A stretch of DNA of 64,000 bases from an uncultured Muribaculaceae bacterium (lineage in GTDB: Bacteria; Cyanobacteriota; Vampirovibrionia; Gastranaerophilales; Gastranaerophilaceae): positions 60,892 to 124,891 of the forward strand of contig CAYWSX010000006.1 in NCBI GenBank assembly GCA_964461115.1, read 5' to 3'. Of this stretch, positions 4,034 through 27,025 are shown piece after piece; position 1 is the stretch's first letter, and each line of letters begins with the position of its first letter. Both the position numbers and the translations under genes were made by a program. Under the pieces are notes generated by a model. It saw only the letters and a program-made list of their open reading frames with translations, ran no database searches and was not told the origin of the DNA.

Positions 4034-4839
4034 TGCTTTTTTCCGTTAATTCCGCTGTCAATCTGGGTTTGTTTTATAAATTTTTGCACGTCAGCCGGAA
4101 TTTGAATATTTTGCAGGCTGAACATATATTTTTTCAGATCAGCGATATTCTGCTGCTCTTCAAGCAGGTCTTTTTGCGGAATTTGTATTGAGCCCTTGAT
4201 CTCTTCAAATTTTGATTTAACCTCTTTTGAAGCCACTTTGGCGATAATTACGTCCAAATCACTGTCAGTAAGAGAGTATTTTGAGGCAATATCTTTGACT
4301 GTTGCTCCATATGGCAGGCGGTAAAGCCATAAAAGCGTCAGCACATCGGCTTTTCCGATTTGAGTCACGCCGTATTTGTGCGGAACATACATTATGTCCG
4401 CTTCGAACGGGCTGTGCCCAAGCCCCAGTGCGTGCCCGATTTCGTGCACTATTGTGTGGTAAACTTCATCTTCGTGCATGTATTTTTGGCAGACGTAGCC
4501 GTCTGAAATCCCGATTTCGATTTCTGCCGAGTAATATCTGAAATTTTCATCATGATTCCAGTTGCAATGTCCGAGAGACTCACGATTTACGCGCCTCCAG
4601 CTTAAATTTATCTGTGAATCATAGAGACTGTTTACAATCCTGAATTTTATAAAGCCGCTTGTGACTCTTTCCCACTCACGGAGAGCCCGCATAACCATTT
4701 CGCGGTATTTTTCAGATTCGTGAGCAACAGAATAAAATTTACACGGTGCAATGTAAAATTTTATGGGCATGGTATTTTCCGCCCATCTTGCAATGCGCCC
4801 TTTGTTTAAACTCTGTTGTAAATAAGTAAATTTTTTCAT
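4030..4839 (-). CDS. Matrixin-like (M10 family) zinc metalloprotease
   Basis: HTIVHEIGHALGLGHSPFEADIMY contains the HExxHxxGxxH zinc motif plus a Met-turn. First gene of a 3-gene overlapping operon. Confidence 0.75.
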   Translation of the reverse strand: MKKFTYLQQSLNKGRIARWAENTMPIKFYIAPCKFYSVAHESEKYREMVMRALREWERVTSGFIKFRIVNSLYDSQINLSWRRVNRESLGHCNWNHDENFRYYSAEIEIGISDGYVCQKYMHEDEVYHTIVHEIGHALGLGHSPFEADIMYVPHKYGVTQIGKADVLTLLWLYRLPYGATVKDIASKYSLTDSDLDVIIAKVASKEVKSKFEEIKGSIQIPQKDLLEEQQNIADLKKYMFSLQNIQIPADVQKFIKQTQIDSGINGKKQ

Positions 4840-4937
4840 AAATACGTTAAAATCAAACTTCCTTTATTAAAATTTACCATATAATCTATGCCGGTTCAAT
4901 TTGGCTTAAATAAACTCAATATTTGGTTTTGCCATGA

Positions 4938-4966
4938 TTGACAATGATCCTTGTCTGGGTTAAATT
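4938..4966 (+). promoter_or_regulatory. Sigma-70-type promoter for rplU-rpmA
   Basis: TTGACA (4938-4943), 17-nt spacer, TAAATT (4961-4966), about 80 nt upstream of rplU. Confidence 0.5.
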
Positions 4967-5047
4967 ATCAATACTTGTATTAGATAGGTTGATTGCCCCT
5001 AAATGCTTTTAAAAGCTGCAATCCCTTAAAATTGAAAGGAAATTCAC

Positions 5048-5398
5048 ATGTACGCAATAGTTGAAACAGGCGGAAAACAATACCCTATGGAAGAAGGAAG
5101 ATACATCGATATCGAACTTCTTGAAGGCGAAAAAGACGAAAAAGTTGTTTTTGATAAAATTGTTATGCTTGTAAACGGTAAAAAATCAAAAGTTGGTCAG
5201 CCTTATGTTGAAAAAGCGACAGTAGAAGGCAAAATTATGACTCACGATAAATCAAAAAAAGTTATCGTATACAAACAAAGACCTAAAAAAGGATACAGAA
5301 AAAAACAAGGTCACAGACAAGGCTTTACAAGAGTTATGATTAGCAAAATCAGAACTACAGCGGCTAAAGTAGCTAAAGAAGAAGCAGCTGCAGAATAG
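5048..5398 (+). CDS. rplU: 50S ribosomal protein L21
   Basis: MYAIVETGGKQY... canonical L21 N-terminus. Basic C-terminal extension. Confidence 0.95.
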   Translation: MYAIVETGGKQYPMEEGRYIDIELLEGEKDEKVVFDKIVMLVNGKKSKVGQPYVEKATVEGKIMTHDKSKKVIVYKQRPKKGYRKKQGHRQGFTRVMISKIRTTAAKVAKEEAAAE

Positions 5399-5431
5399 TC
5401 AAAAGAAATTAATTAATAAGGAGATAAAACA

Positions 5432-5686
5432 ATGGCTCATAAGAAGGGTGTAGGTTCATCCAAAAACGGAAGAGATTCGGAAAGTAAGCGATTAGGCGTT
5501 AAAAAATACGGCGGCGAAGCTGTTCTTGCGGGCAATATTCTTGTTCGTCAGCGCGGTACAAAAATTCACCCCGGTGTTAACGTTGGACGCGGTTCAGACG
5601 ACACATTGTTCGCAACTATCGACGGTGTTGTAAAATTCGAACCACACAGACGCGACAGAAAACAAGTAAGCGTATACGCTCAATAG
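5432..5686 (+). CDS. rpmA: 50S ribosomal protein L27
   Basis: [24 protein letters not shown]... canonical L27. AAGGAG RBS. Confidence 0.97.
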
Positions 5687-5711
5687 TTTTCGGAAGAATC
5701 AGATAAATTTT

Positions 5712-5743
5712 AAAAAACGTCCGAGTTTCGGGCGTTTTTTTTA
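5712..5743. terminator. Bidirectional rho-independent terminator
   Basis: Stem ACGTCCGA (5717-5724) / TCGGGCGT (5728-5735), 3-nt loop, flanked by an A-run and a T8 run. Confidence 0.8.
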
Positions 5744-6646
5744 TGCGGAAACTACGTTTTTTAACAGATCGGCAAAATCCGTACTCAATAATTGAGCGAA
5801 AACCTCAGGGTCAATTTGTGTTACTACAACGGCCATAAGGTCTTGCGGTAAATTATCGATAACCTTTATGAGCATATCTTCGTCAAGTTTACCCATGCCT
5901 TTAATTAATTCGGACTTATCTAAGAGTTCTAGCGGTTTTGTCAGGGTTTTGACGCTGAATTCTTCCCATAATTTAGGGTCTTCTTCGCACATGTTCATGA
6001 TAATTTGACGTTTGTATTTAGGCTTAAGCGCTTGAATTGATTCTGTAAACTGTTTTGGATTTAATTGTTCAATTGTTTCCAGCAATCCCTTGCGGTCGGT
6101 ATTTTCGTCAACAGGCTTGCCTGTAACTCCTTCAACCATCTGCATAAGTGCTTCTTTGTTTAGGCTTTGAACTTCTTTCATCAATTTTTTAGGATCGACT
6201 TTTTCTGATTCAAACCATTTGTTTAAATCGGACTCAGGTACAAGTTTTAGGAAGTCCTGCTTTGAATAACATTCAAAAAGAATTTTTGTAATTTCTTTTT
6301 TCGGCATTTCGCGGATGTACTTCATAAGAGCGTCTTGGGTAAAAAATTGGAGCCCGTTAGCAAGGTCTTTTGCAGGCAAATATTGCAATAATCTCGACAA
6401 ATCATCAGGGTTCATTTCTCGAAGGATTTTCCAGCGATTTTTGGCACTTCCCAGCTTAAATAGGCGCATGATTGCGTTAGGGTCTTTTAAGATACTGATG
6501 AGATAATCTTCGGCCGCAGTATTACCGTTAGCGGCTTCGGTTTCTACAATTTCCTGCAAACTTTGAGACCCATACGCTTGCAAACGCTGGGCATCAATGT
6601 TGATGTACCTTGACAGGTAATTTAAATCTAATTCTATTGATATCAT
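5741..6646 (-). CDS. Hypothetical all-helical protein (repeats vaguely reminiscent of MgtE-N/FliG-type helical domains)
   Basis: 301-aa ORF with coding-like composition. Repeated L..L.p.dla..l segments. No catalytic motif recognised. Confidence 0.6.
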   Translation of the reverse strand: MISIELDLNYLSRYINIDAQRLQAYGSQSLQEIVETEAANGNTAAEDYLISILKDPNAIMRLFKLGSAKNRWKILREMNPDDLSRLLQYLPAKDLANGLQFFTQDALMKYIREMPKKEITKILFECYSKQDFLKLVPESDLNKWFESEKVDPKKLMKEVQSLNKEALMQMVEGVTGKPVDENTDRKGLLETIEQLNPKQFTESIQALKPKYKRQIIMNMCEEDPKLWEEFSVKTLTKPLELLDKSELIKGMGKLDEDMLIKVIDNLPQDLMAVVVTQIDPEVFAQLLSTDFADLLKNVVSA

Positions 6647-20299: not shown

Positions 20300-21265
20300 T
20301 TACATGGCGAAATTGAGTAAATATCCTACTATGACAAAGGATACAAACAAATACGAAGCAAAAATCGCAAGCATTTCCCACTTCAGGACTTTATTAAGCA
20401 TAATCATTTCAGGAAGTGAAATAGCAGTAATACTCATGAGCATTACAAGCGTTGTCCCGAGCGGGACGCCTTTCATAAGCAAAACCTGAACTATGGGCAG
20501 AACGCTGTCATGGTTTGCGTAAACAGGGATTCCCGCAAATGCTGCAATCAGGACTGCAAAAGGATTTGAAGCACCAAGATATTTTGCAAAGAGTTCTTCA
20601 GGTATATAGCCGTGCATAAACGCCCCTACAACGAGTCCGATTAAAACATATATCCAAATATCCCTCAGGGTTGCAAACGCATAATCATGGGCGTACTGCA
20701 CGGTGGATTTTATCTTTTCTCCTGTGGATTTGCATTCGCAATGATTGTCATTTTTTTGAAATGTATTAGTTTTTATGAATTTGCCTAAGTTAAATTTGTC
20801 GCAAAGCCATCCGCCCGTTACAGAAATTACTCCTCCTGCCAAAATATATACGAATGCTGCCTTAAAACCTGCGCCAGGTGTAATCAAGAGGAGAGCTGTC
20901 GCAATTTCGCTGATTAAAGGCGAGCTTATCAAAAATGCCATGGTTATTCCGAAGGGAATACCCGCCGCAACAAATGCAATGAACAAAGGAATTGAAGAAC
21001 AGGAACAAAATGGTGTCACTACCCCCAAAAATACGGCTAAAATATATCCGAAAAACGATGACTTTCCGCTTAGATAGCTTTTAATTTTTTCAGGTGCAAG
21101 CTGTTTCCTAAAAAGTGAGACCACAAAGAGCATTACATAAATCAGCAAGAATATTTTTATTGTATCTTCTATAAAAAAGCTTACGGCAGCCCCGGTGCGG
21201 GTGCTTAGGTCAAGCCCCATTTTTACGGTTGCAAAATTTGCGAAATTTGTTATAAATTCAAGCAT
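20300..21265 (-). CDS. arsP: ArsP/DUF318-type permease (putative organoarsenical/metalloid efflux permease)
   Basis: Multi-TM protein with a TPFCSCSSIP vicinal-Cys motif. Directly abuts the arsR stop. Confidence 0.65.
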   Translation of the reverse strand: MLEFITNFANFATVKMGLDLSTRTGAAVSFFIEDTIKIFLLIYVMLFVVSLFRKQLAPEKIKSYLSGKSSFFGYILAVFLGVVTPFCSCSSIPLFIAFVAAGIPFGITMAFLISSPLISEIATALLLITPGAGFKAAFVYILAGGVISVTGGWLCDKFNLGKFIKTNTFQKNDNHCECKSTGEKIKSTVQYAHDYAFATLRDIWIYVLIGLVVGAFMHGYIPEELFAKYLGASNPFAVLIAAFAGIPVYANHDSVLPIVQVLLMKGVPLGTTLVMLMSITAISLPEMIMLNKVLKWEMLAIFASYLFVSFVIVGYLLNFAM

Positions 21266-21589
21266 TTATGTCTCCTCCGGCGTTGTAAATTTGTCATAAC
21301 AGGCTATACAATCTTTGTGTAGAAATTTCATTGCGTCACGAATTCTCTCGCAGTTGGGTTTGTATATGAGGGATTTTCCATTTTTTATGTATGTGCACAG
21401 TCCTGCTTGTGAGAGCAGTGATAGATGGAATGACAGTGTATTTTTTGGAATTTTTAATTCGTGTGCAATTTGTGTCGGGTTTATACCGTTAATACTGTTT
21501 TTCACAATAATTTTGTAAATTGCAAGCCTCGTATCTTGCGCCAGTGCGGTAAAAATTATTATAGCGTCTTCATTTTTCAATTTATTCAT
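21266..21589 (-). CDS. arsR: ArsR/SmtB family metalloregulatory transcriptional repressor
   Basis: ALAQDTRLAIYKII... wHTH with LSFHLSLLSQAGL. Cys residues at the C-terminus (CIACYD). Confidence 0.85.
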   Translation of the reverse strand: MNKLKNEDAIIIFTALAQDTRLAIYKIIVKNSINGINPTQIAHELKIPKNTLSFHLSLLSQAGLCTYIKNGKSLIYKPNCERIRDAMKFLHKDCIACYDKFTTPEET

Positions 21590-21596
21590 TCCTTAC

Positions 21597-21616
21597 AATT
21601 CTATGATTCTAGAATT
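21597..21616. promoter_or_regulatory. Inverted repeat AATTCTA-N6-TAGAATT, candidate ArsR operator
   Basis: Read directly. Begins 8 nt upstream of the arsR start codon (minus strand). Confidence 0.4.
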
Positions 21617-21770
21617 ATGGAACTATTTTGGGAAACTGTCAACCCTCCTTGATATTTTTTGTGAATATTTGTGAAAGTAATCTTTTATTACGGCTCGGTG
21701 ATTGTGGGTAGAGCGGTAAATTTGGCTTGTACAAATAGGAAAAAGTGTTGTAAAATAAATTATAAAATTT

Positions 21771-21784
21771 GTTGCATATGCAAC
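21771..21784. promoter_or_regulatory. Perfect 14-bp palindrome GTTGCATATGCAAC
   Basis: Read directly. Ends 12 nt before the ATG of the Crp/Fnr gene. Confidence 0.4.
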
Positions 21785-21796
21785 TTTTGAGGATGA

Positions 21797-22426: not shown

Positions 22427-22894
22427 ATGAAAAAGGCTGTTATTATTGATACTCCTATTGGTGTTTTGGCAATTGCGGAAGAAAACGAAAAAATCACAAA
22501 CTTGTTTTTAGATGCTGAAAAACTACCTGCTGAAATTAAAATTGAGGAAACTGCTCTTTTAGTTAGGGCTAAAACGCAGTTAGAAGAGTACTTTCTGGGA
22601 AAAAGAAAAAAATTCGATTTGCCTATAAATCCAAAAGGGACAGATTTTCAACAGAAAGTGTGGAAAAATCTCGTTAAAATTCCTTATGGTAAAACGTGGA
22701 CTTACAAAGAACTTGCGGAAGAGTCCGGGAATGTCAAAGCTTGCAGGGCTGTGGGTGGTGCTAATAATAAGAACCCTATTGCTATTTTTGTTCCCTGCCA
22801 CAGGGTTATAGGCGCTGACGGAAAACTTGTCGGATATGCAGGCGGACTTAGTGTTAAGCAAAAACTTTTAGAGTTGGAAGCCAAATACAATTAG
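22427..22894 (+). CDS. ogt: Methylated-DNA--protein-cysteine methyltransferase
   Basis: PCHRVIG active-site motif and YKELAE...RAVGGANNKNP. Confidence 0.92.
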   Translation: MKKAVIIDTPIGVLAIAEENEKITNLFLDAEKLPAEIKIEETALLVRAKTQLEEYFLGKRKKFDLPINPKGTDFQQKVWKNLVKIPYGKTWTYKELAEESGNVKACRAVGGANNKNPIAIFVPCHRVIGADGKLVGYAGGLSVKQKLLELEAKYN

Positions 22895-22977: not shown

Positions 22978-23006
22978 TTGACAGAATTAAATAATTAGGA
23001 TAATAT
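22978..23006 (+). promoter_or_regulatory. Near-consensus sigma-70 promoter of the Cys-rich protein gene
   Basis: TTGACA (22978-22983), 17 nt, TAATAT (23001-23006). Confidence 0.65.
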
Positions 23007-23014
23007 ATCACTAC

Positions 23015-23027
23015 ACCCCCGAGGGGT
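23015..23027. promoter_or_regulatory. GC-rich inverted repeat ACCCC-CGA-GGGGT, candidate CsoR operator
   Basis: Read directly, 8 nt downstream of the -10 box. Resembles the C4/G4 inverted-repeat architecture of known CsoR operators. Confidence 0.55.
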
Positions 23028-23096
23028 CATATGAAAATCGGATTGTGTTTACATAGAGTTGTAAGAATTTATTACTACATATAAAAGGAGAAATTT

Positions 23097-23405
23097 ATGA
23101 AAAAATCTTTAATCGTTACTATGGCAGCGCTTGTTGCTTTGACAGTCGGCATGAACACGGCTATTGCAAAAAGCAAAGACTGTGACTGCGCATGCAACTG
23201 CTCGAAATGTCATTGTGAGAAAAAATGCGACTGTGATTGTTGCAAAAAAGGTGACTGCAAATGTGGAGAGGACTGTAAATGTCATAAGCAAGTAAATTGT
23301 GGTTGTGATGACAAGTGCAACTGTTCTTGTACGAAGAAAAAAATCTTTACAAAGGCAGTAAAAAAAGACATTCCTTGCGAATGTGAAAAAAATCAAGCTA
23401 AATAA
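23097..23405 (+). CDS. Secreted Cys-rich metallothionein-like protein
   Basis: Signal peptide MKKSLIVTMAALVALTVGMNTAIA|K. Mature 78 aa with 21 Cys, mostly as CxC/CxxC repeats (DCDCACNCSKCHCEKKCDCDCC...). AAGGAG RBS. Confidence 0.75.
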   Translation: MKKSLIVTMAALVALTVGMNTAIAKSKDCDCACNCSKCHCEKKCDCDCCKKGDCKCGEDCKCHKQVNCGCDDKCNCSCTKKKIFTKAVKKDIPCECEKNQAK

Positions 23406-23425
23406 ATTTTATTTGCAAATTTGCC

Positions 23426-23451
23426 AAAAAGCACTCGAAAGAGTGTTTTTT
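23426..23451 (+). terminator. Rho-independent terminator
   Basis: AAAAAGCACTC-GAAA-GAGTGTTTTTT. Confidence 0.65.
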
Positions 23452-23459
23452 GGTATAAT
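23451..23459 (+). promoter_or_regulatory. Extended -10 promoter element (TGgTATAAT) for csoR
   Basis: Read directly, about 45 nt upstream of the csoR ATG. Confidence 0.4.
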
Positions 23460-23502: not shown

Positions 23503-23775
23503 ATGAAAGCAGACAGAAAAAAAATTGATACACTTCTAAAAACTGCAAGGGGTCAAATTGATGGGCTATTAAAAATGATTGAAGAGGACAGACATTGCGT
23601 TGAAATCAGCACACAAATTCTGGCTGCACAATCCATATTGAAGAAAGTAAATATGGAGATATTGAACTCTCATTTGAGCCACTGTGTTAAGGAGACATTT
23701 GAACATGCCGGCGAGGCAGAAAAGAAGGCTCAAATTGATGAAATTATTTCAATTATAAACAAAATTACGAAATAA
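23503..23775 (+). CDS. csoR: CsoR/RcnR/FrmR-family metal-sensing repressor with the x-C-H-C (Cu-sensing CsoR-type) fingerprint
   Basis: 90 aa. GQIDGLLKMIEEDRHC and HLSHC (His and Cys at i, i+4). Confidence 0.85.
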   Translation: MKADRKKIDTLLKTARGQIDGLLKMIEEDRHCVEISTQILAAQSILKKVNMEILNSHLSHCVKETFEHAGEAEKKAQIDEIISIINKITK

Positions 23776-23801
23776 AAAACGCGGTGAAAACCGCGTTTTT
23801 G
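23774..23801. terminator. Bidirectional rho-independent terminator
   Basis: AAAAACGCGG-TGAAAA-CCGCGTTTTT between convergent genes. Confidence 0.8.
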
Positions 23802-23802
23802 G

Positions 23803-24111
23803 TTAATCATTGTCTTTTTTATTAAGAAGTTTTTTTACTTCTTCATGGCCTTTAGCATAAGAGCTTTCTTCTTCAGGTGCTAAAATATAAAGTATTTTTT
23901 GGAAATTTCCGGCATGAACAAGCTCATCACCGGCGACTTCAAGCAATACGGCTTTAGCTTCTTTGTTGTCAATCGACTCGGCAAGCTGCTCATATAGTTG
24001 TGTGGATTCGTATTCGGCTGCAATACTAAATCTTATGGCTCTGATTAACTCCTCTTTTGTCAAGGGTTTGTCATTTTTTTTGACCGAAAACGGACTGCAA
24101 AATTCAGGCAT
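23803..24111 (-). CDS. Small ferritin-like protein with EncFtn-type ferroxidase residue spacing
   Basis: Start set at M42 of the ORF (AGGAGG RBS at 24115-24120). AAEYESTQLYEQ...GDELVHAG gives Glu, Tyr at +7, Glu at +30 and His at +33, the spacing I recall for encapsulated ferritins. Confidence 0.55.
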   Translation of the reverse strand: MPEFCSPFSVKKNDKPLTKEELIRAIRFSIAAEYESTQLYEQLAESIDNKEAKAVLLEVAGDELVHAGNFQKILYILAPEEESSYAKGHEEVKKLLNKKDND

Positions 24112-24276
24112 ATAACCTCCTTTTTTATTTATATTCTTAAAAAATATAAAATTAAGCATTCCCCGACAGACCAAATACAAAAAAATCAAAAAACAGGCAC
24201 AAAATACTACCCAACCGGGTAGTATTTTTTTCAATTTTTGTAATATATGATTACTAGTTGTGTCGGGAGTTAGAGT

Positions 24277-25950
24277 ATGAAAATTAAATTGATGGTTTTA
24301 ATGTATACATTAGGGGTAATTTTGTTGATACTTACCATAGTATCATCAATTTATGGGCATTACATTGGAATAGATGTTTTAATATTATGCAGTTTATTGA
24401 TGATTTGGTTGAACATAAAAAAGGAAGAAGAAAAAAGGCAAAAGATTGACGAGGTAGACAACTACAAGGCTGTTATTTCAGATGTTTTTAAGTATTCTTC
24501 AGATTTAATTTTCTTGAAAGATACAAAAGGTAAATATATCACCTGTAATAAGATTTTTGCAAATAAAATGAAATTTACTGATGAATCAGCAATAGAAGGG
24601 CTTTCTGATAGAGACTTTGTATCAGAAGAAGATTTTTTACAAATAAGGAAAATTGACGATTATGTAATTAAAAATCAACTTCCTGTGAAATATATCCGCC
24701 CTATGAAAATGTTTCATGATGGAGTTTATGAGCTGAAACTTTCACCTTTTGTTCAAAAAGGCAAAGTCCAAGGCGTTTTTGGGGTTGCCAGAAATATAAA
24801 AGAAAAAATAGATTTGGAAAATTATATTCAAATGCAAAAGGCTCAGGTTGCTTCAATCCTGGATAGTATCGCTTCTATGGCATATTTAAAGGATATAAAT
24901 AACAATATTATTACTGCAAATAAAAGTTTTCTGAAATTTTTAGGCTGTAACGAAGAGGATATCAATAAGCCCGGTATATTAGACAAGTTTAAAATTATTA
25001 ATGAACAAAGTTTTCAAACTGACAGAATTATTATCGAAACTAAAATTACAAAAAGAATGGATATAGAGGTACAAGCCCCATATAGTACTTTCTGGTTTGA
25101 TACTCAAAAATCTCCCTTTTTTGATATAGAAGGTAATGTAATAGGAATAATGGTTCTTTGTACTGATATAACACAGCGAAAAAATATGGAAGAAGAGCTA
25201 ATTAAGGCAAAGGAAGATGCTTTGGCTTTAAATAATTTGAAAACTCAGATGATAGCAAATATAACACATGAAATTAAAACGCCTTTGAGTGGAATAATAG
25301 GTTTTTTGGATTTGATAGCGGAGCAAATCAATACTGAAAAATGTCGTGTTTACATTGAAAAAGCTAGGAAATTTGCACATATACTTTTGGAGTTAATTAC
25401 TACACTGCTTGAGTTTTCGCAATTGGAGTGCAAGAAAATCAAACTTGATATGAATGTATTTAATTTACAAAAAATGCTTATTGATGCTTTGGAATTTATA
25501 AATAAAAAAGCCGGTGAAAAAAATATTAAAATTGATTTTGATTATGATGAAAGTATTCCTGAAAACATATGCGGTGATAGTACTAAAATTTTCCAAGTTA
25601 TAAATAATTTATTGGATAACTCGTTAAAATTTACTGACAGGGGAAAAATATCTCTCATTACAAGGCTGGTGGATTTAAATGAAAAAGAAACCGAAATCTA
25701 TTTTGAAATTAGGGATACAGGCATTGGCATACGGGAAGAAGACAAAAATACGGTGTTTGAGCCGTTTATTCAGGGGGATTTATCTTCAACAAAAAAATAT
25801 CAAGGTACGGGGCTGGGACTTCACAATTGCAAAGGTTTTTTAGAGGCTATGGGCAGCAAAATATTCTGTGAAAGTATTGTGGGAGAAGGTACAAAAATGT
25901 TTTTTACGGTTAAGTTTTCTAATGAAGCTGTGCCGAGTATATCGTATTAG
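24277..25950 (+). CDS. Membrane-anchored PAS-domain sensor histidine kinase (orphan)
   Basis: Two N-terminal TM helices, two PAS-like regions, HisKA box ITHEIKTPLSGI and HATPase box GTGLGL. No response regulator nearby. Confidence 0.88.
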   Translation: MKIKLMVLMYTLGVILLILTIVSSIYGHYIGIDVLILCSLLMIWLNIKKEEEKRQKIDEVDNYKAVISDVFKYSSDLIFLKDTKGKYITCNKIFANKMKFTDESAIEGLSDRDFVSEEDFLQIRKIDDYVIKNQLPVKYIRPMKMFHDGVYELKLSPFVQKGKVQGVFGVARNIKEKIDLENYIQMQKAQVASILDSIASMAYLKDINNNIITANKSFLKFLGCNEEDINKPGILDKFKIINEQSFQTDRIIIETKITKRMDIEVQAPYSTFWFDTQKSPFFDIEGNVIGIMVLCTDITQRKNMEEELIKAKEDALALNNLKTQMIANITHEIKTPLSGIIGFLDLIAEQINTEKCRVYIEKARKFAHILLELITTLLEFSQLECKKIKLDMNVFNLQKMLIDALEFINKKAGEKNIKIDFDYDESIPENICGDSTKIFQVINNLLDNSLKFTDRGKISLITRLVDLNEKETEIYFEIRDTGIGIREEDKNTVFEPFIQGDLSSTKKYQGTGLGLHNCKGFLEAMGSKIFCESIVGEGTKMFFTVKFSNEAVPSISY

Positions 25951-26966
25951 ATTCCCAGTATTTTAATAATTCCGAAGCTTAAAAAGGATATAAACACAGA
26001 CGCAATAATACCTAAATACAATGGTTTTATACCGACTTTCTGCATATTTGCAAAACTTGTCTCAAGCCCGAGTCCTGCCATTGCTGCCGTCATTAAATAA
26101 GTGCAAACCAGATTTAATGTATTTATAACGGTCTCTGGTATGTTAAAAATTGAGTTTATCAATATTACGACGGTAAAAAATATTACAAACCAAGGGATTT
26201 GTATGTTTTTAATGTCGAATTTTTTTGAATTTTTTTGCGTTCTTAAAATACTTATAACAAAAGTTATCGGTATAATGTAAAGAACTCGTGTCAGTTTGAC
26301 AAGAGTGGACATGATTCCCGCTTCATCTGATACTGCAAATCCTGCGGCAACTACCTGGGCGACTTCATGAACTGATGTCCCCGCCCAAAAGGCATAAGCT
26401 GAGGTGCTTAGGTGTATAAGATTTTGCGCCAAAGGATACAGAAGCATAAACAAGGTGCCGAAAATCGTGATGATTCCTATTGAGAACGAGACATCTTCTT
26501 CCTGTTCTTTATCGTTTAAGGCGCTGACTGCGATAATCGCTGCTGCACCGCATATGGAGCATCCTGAAGCGACCAAAAGCGAAAGATTTTTGGATAGTTT
26601 CATGACTTTTCCCATCCATATAGTAAAAAACATTGTTGCGACAACAATTAACCCAATAAGGAAAATTCCCTCTAATCCAAGCTGATAAACCTCTTTGAGG
26701 CTTAGTTTGAATCCCAGTAATATAATTGCAAATCTTAAAACTTTTTTAGCACAGAATTTTATTCCCGGTCTCATCTTACGTTTTATGCCTAAAAAGTTTT
26801 TTACAAGCATTCCCAGCAAAATAGCAATAATTATTGTGCTGAGGTGTAAAAGCTTTGCTAAATATGAGTTTTGCAGACTTACGGCAAGCATTGTTATTAA
26901 AGTTACAAGAATCAAGCCTTCGGCGAGGTTTCGATGTTTTTTGATATCCTTGAATAATTTTTTCAT
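25947..26966 (-). CDS. YeiH/UPF0324 family membrane protein (putative sulfate exporter family)
   Basis: Polytopic membrane protein with YeiH-like sequence. ATG at 26966 preferred over the TTG at 27014. Confidence 0.65.
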   Translation of the reverse strand: MKKLFKDIKKHRNLAEGLILVTLITMLAVSLQNSYLAKLLHLSTIIIAILLGMLVKNFLGIKRKMRPGIKFCAKKVLRFAIILLGFKLSLKEVYQLGLEGIFLIGLIVVATMFFTIWMGKVMKLSKNLSLLVASGCSICGAAAIIAVSALNDKEQEEDVSFSIGIITIFGTLFMLLYPLAQNLIHLSTSAYAFWAGTSVHEVAQVVAAGFAVSDEAGIMSTLVKLTRVLYIIPITFVISILRTQKNSKKFDIKNIQIPWFVIFFTVVILINSIFNIPETVINTLNLVCTYLMTAAMAGLGLETSFANMQKVGIKPLYLGIIASVFISFLSFGIIKILGI

Positions 26967-27025
26967 GTTCTTTTGTCCGATTTTTATATCATCTATACAA
27001 TACAATGAACACAAAGCTCTGAAAA

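Follow-up and report, generated by a model that had tools for sequence, protein, structure and literature searches.

This report concerns a small gene locus in a 64,000-nucleotide stretch of DNA (contig CAYWSX010000006.1 of assembly GCA_964461115.1, positions 60,892 to 124,891), referred to as the window, that belongs to an uncultured member of the Gastranaerophilaceae. Two genes lie here one after the other. The first encodes a 102-residue precursor with a predicted signal peptide and an extremely cysteine-rich mature part, and the second a 90-residue repressor of the CsoR/RcnR family. A near-consensus promoter precedes the cysteine-rich gene, and a predicted CsoR-type operator is found where its transcription is expected to start (Table 1). 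A first-pass annotation, made from the letters alone, had already drawn this outline: an open reading frame (ORF) with a Sec-type signal ending in TAIA, a 78-residue mature part holding 21 Cys (about 27%) in CxC, CxxC and CC motifs together with 2 His, a TTGACA-17-TAATAT promoter, an operator at the transcription start, and a csoR gene with the x-C-H-C fingerprint. These elements were all recovered: the coordinates and layout of the ORF agree with signal-peptide rules and family conservation, the residues were recounted and are correct, the promoter came back from a consensus scan, the operator geometry is kept in ten loci, and the regulator matches its Pfam family with all three ligand positions aligned.

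The N-terminus of the precursor has the layout of a Sec substrate: MKK, then the hydrophobic core SLIVTMAALVALTVG, then MNTAIA, with KS beyond the cut, that is, two lysines, a core of 15 residues, and A-I-A at -3 to -1. The call follows n-, h-, and c-region rules together with family conservation, the hydrophobic core being judged by inspection; by these rules the charged n-region, an h-region of the required 10-15 residues, and the small residues at -3 and -1 mark a substrate of Sec and signal peptidase I, with cleavage predicted after Ala24 and a mature protein starting at Lys25. Neither a twin-arginine motif nor a lipobox is present at the N-terminus of the window precursor, and a lipoprotein was ruled out for this protein on the missing lipobox. 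As for the cell into which the product would be exported, the window also encodes LptF/G, an OEP/TolC-like protein, and an SLH protein, a set that identifies the host, as far as its genes can tell, as a diderm with an outer membrane and a periplasm.

The mature part (78 residues, 8.7 kDa, pI 8.45) is made of 21 Cys, 2 His, 19 Lys, and 1 Phe among others, and it has no Tyr, Trp, or Met; its cysteines are arranged in 12 CxC, 2 CxxC, and 1 CC motifs. A mass below 10 kDa, a Cys content between 15 and 35%, CxC/CxxC/CC motifs, and few or no aromatic residues are the operational marks of a metallothionein, and all of them are found here. Searches by homology gave a different picture: the protein has no Pfam (E <= 0.01), NCBIfam, or PDB relative, its sole PDB match being a chance hit to follistatin at E 7.7. 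No homology to SmtA/BmtA (Metallothio_Pro), MymT, or the eukaryotic metallothioneins was detected in Pfam, NCBIfam, or PDB, and 13 family members searched against Pfam at E <= 10 matched no metallothionein family. AlphaFold2, run on a 13-sequence alignment, returned a mean pLDDT of 48 and a pTM of 0.26, with no confident fold and no helical bundle.

How widespread is this protein? Queried with the single sequence, a word index of 5.8 billion proteins gave one relative, P0001, with 72% identity by BLASTP (73-74% in MAFFT alignments). HMMER, run exhaustively on 1.84 billion cluster representatives, yielded about eight clusters, with proteins of 88-121 residues, and a profile search widened the family to 16 clusters. 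What emerges is a family of about 15 clusters, all with a signal peptide. A locus search of the GTDB genomes with the single protein found none, whereas a degenerate DNA pattern of the core CxCxCCxKGxCxC succeeded: scanned over one genome per GTDB species, it brought up family members from assemblies that bear the label Gastranaerophilales, Gastranaerophilaceae, or Melainabacteria, from one unlabelled gut metagenome-assembled genome (MAG), and from no others. The pattern scan of metagenome contigs returned mostly low-complexity DNA of the (TGC)n type and three true members (L037, L064, L074; related loci are cited by such numbers where they must be told apart). To judge from these searches, the cysteine-rich proteins are a new family confined to an uncultured gut lineage.

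Within the family, 13 cysteines are invariant (C38, C40, C44, C46, C48, C49, C54, C56, C60, C62, C70, C76, and C78), and C68, C74, C94, C96, and H63 are about 90% conserved; the number of cysteines ranges from 18 to 24, even and odd. The comparison with P0001, the closest relative, covers 99 aligned codons, of which 46 are identical, 27 differ synonymously, and 26 non-synonymously; synonymous sites are saturated at this distance, and the codon counts are given in place of a dN/dS ratio. Purifying selection on every cysteine is evident because all 21 are kept despite this saturation and despite a switch between TGT and TGC in 11 of the 21 codons, and the ORF reads, on the same grounds, as a protein-coding gene in which selection strongly favours keeping the cysteines. 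The export signal is maintained in another way: in each of the roughly 15 members, MKK is followed by a hydrophobic core of 12-16 residues, and positions -3 and -1 hold small residues, although the actual letters change from member to member. The motif AAAGGAG is also kept upstream of the gene in all relatives.

The way in which the export signal is kept bears on the idea that the hydrophobic N-terminus is a membrane anchor or has no function, in which case the site of action of the Cys-rich domain would be the membrane or the cytosol, as with ordinary bacterial metallothioneins. It is true that the cleavage is a rule-based prediction, and that the Lys residues at +1 and +3 are unfavourable for Sec export. 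However, conservation of layout under drift of sequence is what a cleaved Sec signal leaves behind, and the other members carry neutral or acidic residues after the site. An anchored or cytosolic product is, in our estimate, barely credible.

More cysteines outside the cytoplasm usually mean disulfides, and a second question is if the product is a disulfide-rich envelope or secreted protein. It might be cross-linked and structural, like the small cysteine-rich outer-membrane protein of chlamydiae, or it might be an antimicrobial peptide, and stress of the envelope or of thiols would then account for the link with the regulator. Many bacteria have an oxidising periplasm, and disulfide bonds are the rule in exported proteins rich in Cys; the variable Cys count of the members is in line with this, and so is the basic pI of 8.45, which many antimicrobial peptides share. 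The motifs themselves argue otherwise, as CxC and CC dominate, a spacing at which local disulfides are hard to form and which is typical of thiolate clusters, and as the window protein has an odd number of cysteines. Moreover, the model shows no confident fold, the searches matched no family of knottins, EGF domains, or defensins, and a structural protein would not be expected to show the tight, conserved link with a repressor of metal-sensor type and with a metal exporter that is described below. The gut hosts of the family are taken as strict anaerobes, a further reason to regard a disulfide-bonded product as improbable. A precursor of a ribosomally synthesized and post-translationally modified peptide or of a bacteriocin was considered as well and rejected: there are no radical-SAM, lanthipeptide, or transporter genes near any of the loci, and the conserved partner is a repressor of metal type.

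The control region is compact. The operator core ACCCCCGAGGGGT, which can be written as C5-GA-G4, starts 8 nt past the -10 box and overlaps the expected transcription start, and the flanking half-sites TCAcTAc and gTAtaTGA extend it to an imperfect palindrome. In the 64-kb window the core is unique even when one mismatch is allowed (expected number 0.24). Type-2 operators of the CsoR family have two short G/C tracts separated by 2-4 bases, with AT-rich inverted repeats outside (PMC3902906). By its sequence the site fits this definition and is a predicted operator of this type; it resembles the copZA operators of S. lividans, TACCCCCTAGGGGTA (PMC3902906). The phylogenetic footprint carries far more weight than the statistic of a single window: 10 loci, which represent at least five diverged lineages, preserve the order TTGACA, 16 or 17 nt, TAnnnT, exactly 8 nt, and AC(3-5)N(2-5)G(3-5)T, while the sequence between and around these blocks varies freely. 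The operator occurs once in each related locus of 8-16 kb. In L014 and L026 a shorter variant, CACCCTAGGGGGTG, follows TTGACA-17-TATAAT and lies farther upstream.

These same two loci have a 47-bp tandem repeat, with consensus GTGGGGTGCAAAAATAACCATCATCCCTAAAAGCAACCGAGCGTCGT, between the promoter/operator-like site and the Cys-rich gene (L014:1246-1608, 6.3 copies; L026:3090-3260, fewer copies), and each unit contains a CCC...GGGG pair. L014 also has, at 435-740 and 5' of the Cys-rich gene, a short ORF of the BlaI/CopY family that seems truncated; its best match, CopY/TcrY at 42 bits, is far below the cut-off.

As for the transcript, no RNA structure was found in the 70-nt leader beyond the hairpin of the operator palindrome (z = 0.15), and a riboswitch or attenuator was dropped on this account. 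An intrinsic-terminator-like hairpin closes the gene, with an equivalent at the same place in L001, L003, L010, and L014, and directly after it comes an extended -10 promoter for the regulator, with TGnTAT(A/T)AT at the same position in these four loci and in L026. Because this conserved hairpin and promoter stand between the genes, the Cys-rich gene and csoR are predicted to be separate transcription units and not simply co-transcribed. No operator was found at the regulator's own promoter, or at other targets, in the window or in the related loci of 10-16 kb. The regulator looks constitutively expressed, as its promoter is free of the operator, perhaps with a boost from read-through.

Table 1. 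Features of the cysteine-rich gene, its control region, and the regulator gene (positions in the 64-kb window)
Feature	Positions	Strand	Basis
Sigma-70-type promoter: -35 TTGACA (22978-22983), 17-nt spacer, -10 TAATAT (23001-23006)	22978-23006	+	Consensus scan, 10/12
Predicted type-2 CsoR-family operator, core ACCCCCGAGGGGT at 23015-23027	23008-23034		Inverted repeat, phylogenetic footprint
Ribosome-binding site AAGGAG, 6 nt 5' of ATG	23085-23090	+	Read from sequence
Cys-rich ORF, 102-residue precursor, 309 bp	23097-23405	+	Sequence and translation
Predicted signal peptide, 24 codons, MKKSLIVTMAALVALTVGMNTAIA	23097-23168	+	Sec-type layout by rule
Mature metallothionein-like domain and stop codon	23169-23405	+	Composition, family alignment
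Intrinsic-terminator-like hairpin, stem AAAAAGCACTC / GAGTGTTTTTT	23422-23455	+	Terminator scan
Extended -10 promoter TGgTATAAT of the regulator gene, directly after the hairpin	23451-23459	+	Read from sequence
CsoR/RcnR-family repressor gene, 90 residues, 273 bp	23503-23775	+	PF02583
Bidirectional terminator hairpin common to csoR and the convergent ferritin-like gene	23775-23800		Terminator scan

The regulator is a plain member of its family. It matches PF02583 (Trns_repr_metal, DUF156) with an E-value of 5e-24 and 84.9 bits (cut-off 22.8) over 78 of the 78 profile positions, and its C32, H57, and C61 align with C36, H61, and C65 of the M. tuberculosis CsoR, the ligands of Cu(I), which gives the x-C-H-C fingerprint. 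It begins with MKADRKK, hence with Lys2, and it has no His before C32 except His31; the InrS-type H-C-H-C pattern, with an N-terminal His, is absent from it. In CsoR, a second-shell hydrogen-bond network of Tyr35 and Glu81 couples Cu binding to DNA release. The window regulator has Glu80 at the second of these positions, while the Tyr position is occupied by His31 in the window, by Tyr in L001, and by Asp or Glu in the other relatives. Among solved structures, the Cu(I) CsoRs 4m1p (4e-13, 53 bits) and 2hh7 (7e-12, 49 bits) come nearest to it, against 3e-6 and 31 bits for the InrS structure 5fmn; its top NCBIfam match is RicR, whose 61 bits are far below the cut-off of 175. His57 is invariant across all of the regulators linked to the family.

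The pairing of the two genes is itself conserved. In 12 of 13 distinct loci a CsoR-family gene is found no farther than 1.2 kb from the Cys-rich gene, and the flanking genes differ from one to another: L003 has LpxK/MlaD, L004 has PilD and a sigma factor, and both the window and L001 have a PAS kinase. Together, conserved regulator pairing and operator geometry mark what comparative genomics presents as a real, selected module.

Does the module have to deal with metals at all? The protein could also use its many thiols to scavenge electrophiles, alkylating agents, or reactive sulfur species in the periplasm, with a sensor that reacts through two cysteines in the manner of CstR. What suggests this is the gene directly upstream, which encodes an enzyme for the repair of alkylated DNA or damaged bases, from an unrelated family in each of three lineages: MGMT/Ogt in the window (22427-22894), HhH-GPD in L001 (7206-7817), and AlkD-like PF08713 in L004 (4217-4885), L016 (2034-2642), and L030 (695-1351). 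The adjacency may be a coincidence or a functional link to electrophile stress. In L020, a gene for a CoA-disulfide-reductase-like flavoprotein with a C-terminal rhodanese domain (4150-5781, reverse strand) is divergent from the Cys-rich gene, a combination of domains that is typical of the persulfide-handling enzymes of CstR regulons. The CsoR family also includes FrmR and CstR, which sense no metal (PMC5016687, PMC8643695). However, CstR is devoid of the His that is invariant here, as it is in metal sensors, and FrmR needs Pro2 and has no second Cys. The repair genes, on their side, have their own upstream context with a crp-like gene, they are separated from the Cys-rich gene by the promoter of the latter, and they are missing in L003, L010, L017, and L020. 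Considering also that the exporter described next argues for a metal, a scavenger of electrophiles is held to be very unlikely.

In six loci (L004, L005, L016, L020, L030, and L033) the module has a third member. The Cys-rich gene is followed there by a hairpin, ATATGGGGCATTTTGCCCCATAT, and then by the gene of a cation diffusion facilitator (CDF) exporter, with the regulator convergent behind. The exporter scores 275 bits against the curated DmeF model of Co/Ni efflux, NF033827 (cut-off 250); the hairpin looks leaky, and the two genes look like an operon in these loci. The same architecture could then answer to Ni or Co, as InrS and DmeR do, and the exported protein would be the periplasmic acceptor for a DmeF-type CDF, with dmeF moved elsewhere in the lineage of the window, or with the protein working alone. 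The regulators add to the case made by the exporter, for those of all lineages but the window and L001/L002 start with MH(x)(H), which yields the H-C-H-C pattern; the nearest relative of the window regulator with His2 begins with MHADKKK, in place of MKADRKK. In InrS this pattern is formed by His21, Cys53, His78, and Cys82, and it senses Ni(II) (PMC7055735). InrS, which is cyanobacterial, has the ligands and spectra of a CsoR and binds the consensus CsoR/CstR inverted repeat, and yet it senses Ni and not Cu (PMC3320959). Because this Ni sensor shares both the C-H-C ligands and the operator type, neither of the two features can name the metal, and the assignment of Cu is not secure. The Melainabacteria are, moreover, the sister group of the Cyanobacteria.

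Against a Ni/Co response is the fact that the regulators of the window and of the DmeF-containing clade are nearer to the Cu(I) CsoRs (∼53 bits) than to InrS (∼30 bits), and that the window regulator has Lys2 and not His2. The two regulators are 64% identical and equally CsoR-like by PDB ranking, and they are taken as orthologues for these reasons. DmeR, with its H-C-H-H pattern, differs from all of them, and we know of no natural thiolate-only metallothionein that buffers Ni or Co in vivo. There is no dmeF homologue in the 64-kb window and, with it, no operon of dmeRF type. A module built for Ni or Co seems unlikely, while being a contender to be taken seriously.

For Cu speak the x-C-H-C regulator of the window, its nearest solved relatives, the Cu(I) CsoRs, and its RicR match, far below the cut-off as it is, and CxC-rich thioneins are classical binders of Cu(I) or of Zn/Cd. 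The first-pass annotation had proposed an exported Cu buffer under the control of CsoR, and this proposal stands in part: comparative genomics upholds the architecture, while the choice of Cu is too confident, given a fingerprint shared with InrS, orthologues with His2, and the link to DmeF. If a metal is what the module handles, our estimate makes Cu(I) the leading candidate, although with less than an even chance, Ni or Co a weaker one, and Zn or Cd weaker still.

Taken together, these data are best explained by an exported, metallothionein-like module for metal sequestration, made of two genes and placed under a CsoR-type repressor, a reading to which we assign a probability of roughly 0.6. 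How would such a module operate? At rest, a constitutive tetramer of the CsoR-family protein would sit on the operator, block the promoter, and keep the Cys-rich gene silent. A thiophilic metal in the cytosol would bind to C32, H57, and C61, the repressor would leave the DNA, and a short monocistronic mRNA would be produced at a high rate. The precursor would cross the inner membrane via Sec, unfolded and free of metal, and signal peptidase would cut it after Ala24. In an anoxic periplasm the 21 thiols would remain reduced and would gather several metal ions into thiolate clusters; to judge by metallothioneins of 20 Cys, the capacity might be about 7 divalent ions or some 10-12 Cu(I). Such a periplasmic sink would lower the entry of metal into the cytoplasm and would capture the output of efflux pumps, such as the DmeF-type CDF of the sister clade.

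Several points weigh against this reading. The two lysines after the cleavage site can slow Sec export, and a Dsb-type oxidase, if the host has one, would oxidise cysteines in the periplasm. The lack of an apo-fold is consistent with a protein that folds around metal, which is weak evidence in view of the shallow alignment of 13 sequences. The repair genes of DNA alkylation found upstream in three lineages could point to electrophiles and not to metals, and one locus, L017, has neither regulator nor operator near the Cys-rich gene. The clues to the metal are in conflict, since a Cu-like regulator is set against orthologues with His2 and a CDF of Co/Ni type, and the MH(x)(H) start of most regulators tells against a simple assignment to Cu. 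Finally, copA, any other P-type ATPase, and other Cu genes are absent from the 64-kb window, where the sole operator is the one at the Cys-rich gene.

The surroundings of the locus hold other genes worth a mention. On the reverse strand, 1.5 kb upstream (20300-21589), an ArsR/SmtB-type regulator (21266-21589) is paired with an ArsP_1-family permease (20300-21265) that displays CxC/CSC motifs and sub-threshold matches to SaoE and to the SO_0444 Cu/Zn efflux family; the pair is also found in L001, and it is possibly a second metal(loid) efflux module. Downstream, convergent with csoR (23803-24234, reverse strand), there is a gene of the ferritin-like/rubrerythrin fold, whose matches to the encapsulin-associated EncB/ferritin-like cargo families are below the cut-offs (77 bits versus 90); no encapsulin shell gene was noticed near it. 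Its relatives have 101-102 residues, so the 143-residue ORF with a TTG start is probably too long, and the true start is probably near 24111. The region is otherwise syntenic with L001, from which it differs in gene content at 21590-21796, 22427-22894, and 25947-27014: between its arsR-like and crp-like genes L001 carries a gene for a hybrid-cluster protein (Prismane), which is missing in the window, the window has MGMT where L001 has HhH-GPD, and a YeiH-family putative sulfate exporter is an extra of the window between the PAS kinase and the OEP gene.

Cys-rich proteins of other kinds turned up as well. One family from the motif scan, unrelated to that of the window, has 46-52 residues, 16 Cys, and no signal peptide (MSETTCPCCANGxCACPPCQDGECKCPCCANGNCPCPENCPNCDCC), and looks like a family of cytosolic metallothioneins. 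It is highly conserved in MAGs of Armatimonadota (Fimbriimonadaceae, Chthonomonas) and occurs in a few bins labelled otherwise (L009, L011-L013, L015, L019, L022-L024, L027, L029, L032, L034, and L035; for example, L013:5265-5405, reverse strand), and no CsoR-family gene was detected in its 8-kb loci. More distant are P0006 (L006:5001-5267) and P0019, from a higher-GC organism, which combine a signal peptide with CxC repeats of the form KCxCxPCECEDCKCAEKC; no CsoR gene or operator was found near this group. Exported thionein-like proteins may, then, exist outside the Melainabacteria.

What would the module mean for the field? Metal buffering in the periplasm is thought to rest on Met/His proteins (CusF, PcoE, CopC), on oxidases, or on the folded, Tat-exported Csp1, and bacterial metallothioneins are rare. 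A Sec-exported CxC-repeat thionein under a CsoR-type switch would be, if the reading is true, a new solution to this task, and it would imply that thiolate clusters can be used outside the cytoplasm wherever the envelope stays reduced. A bolder proposal goes further, and we give it even odds: this would be the first natural periplasmic metallothionein, a thiolate-only sponge exported by Sec, specific to gut Melainabacteria and switched by a cytosolic sensor of CsoR type, which serves anaerobes as a substitute for the O2-dependent periplasmic defences against Cu and which, in some lineages, is the dedicated acceptor of a CDF exporter. To our knowledge, the Gastranaerophilales have no cultured physiology, and the module offers a handle on how this lineage of the human and animal gut deals with metals. 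It also provides a natural experiment on the metal selectivity of CsoR and InrS, with orthologues of 64% identity that differ at His2 and in their attachment to a Co/Ni exporter. Its small size, namely a promoter, an operator, a gene of 309 bp, and a regulator of 273 bp, could make it a convenient part for metal capture in the periplasm.

Comparison with known systems helps to define what is new here. Classical metallothioneins, such as vertebrate MT1/2 and SmtA/BmtA, resemble the protein in size, in having about 20 Cys, in the CxC/CxxC/CC motifs, in the near absence of aromatic residues, and in the Lys-rich spacers; they differ in that no homology is found even at E <= 10, and in that the present protein has a conserved signal peptide. 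It would thus be a metallothionein by the compositional definition that fails every homology test to the known families. In reviews, bacterial metallothioneins are counted with the cytosolic metal pool (PMC7558416), and the first-pass annotation likewise gives SmtA/BmtA and MymT as cytosolic. A full-text literature search gave no case of a periplasmic, secreted, exported, or extracytoplasmic metallothionein in bacteria, and one report puts the Pseudomonas PmtA on the cell surface (PMC11237414).

Among systems that handle Ni and Co, InrS-nrsD of Synechocystis and DmeR-DmeF of rhizobia likewise join a CsoR/RcnR-family repressor, a repeat of CsoR type, and a Ni/Co exporter, and the sister clade has their counterparts in its DmeF-type CDF and H-C-H-C regulators. 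Neither of them includes an exported Cys-rich protein, while the window has neither dmeF nor the N-terminal His, and DmeR is H-C-H-H. In E. coli, the CsoR/RcnR-family regulon RcnR-RcnA-RcnB has a periplasmic accessory protein that works together with the metal exporter. RcnB differs in not being Cys-rich and in being unrelated in sequence, and RcnR uses a type-1 operator, TACT-G6-N-AGTA (PMC3902906).

Two systems are closer. Csp1 of methanotrophs is an exported, Cys-rich, high-capacity binder of Cu(I) in a Gram-negative periplasm (PMC7558416, PMC11672702), and the likeness is one of predicted location. Csp1 is, however, a pre-folded tetramer of four-helix bundles that is exported by Tat, whereas the present protein has a Sec signal, CxC repeats, no predicted helices, and no homology to it; membership of the Csp family finds no backing in a family match, an RR motif, or a helical bundle in the model. 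The other is found in Mycobacterium tuberculosis, where RicR, a repressor of the CsoR family, controls the metallothionein MymT. There, metal lifts the repression that a CsoR-family regulator imposes on the gene of a small, Cys-rich protein that sequesters metal, which is the arrangement predicted here. MymT differs in having 53 residues, in being cytosolic and without a signal peptide, and in showing no sequence similarity to the present protein, with its 78 mature residues and its export signal. By its genes, the module follows RicR-MymT in logic and Csp1 in location, and belongs to neither of them; sequestration by a thionein whose gene is derepressed by metal is a known kind of system, and what the locus would add to it is the exported form.

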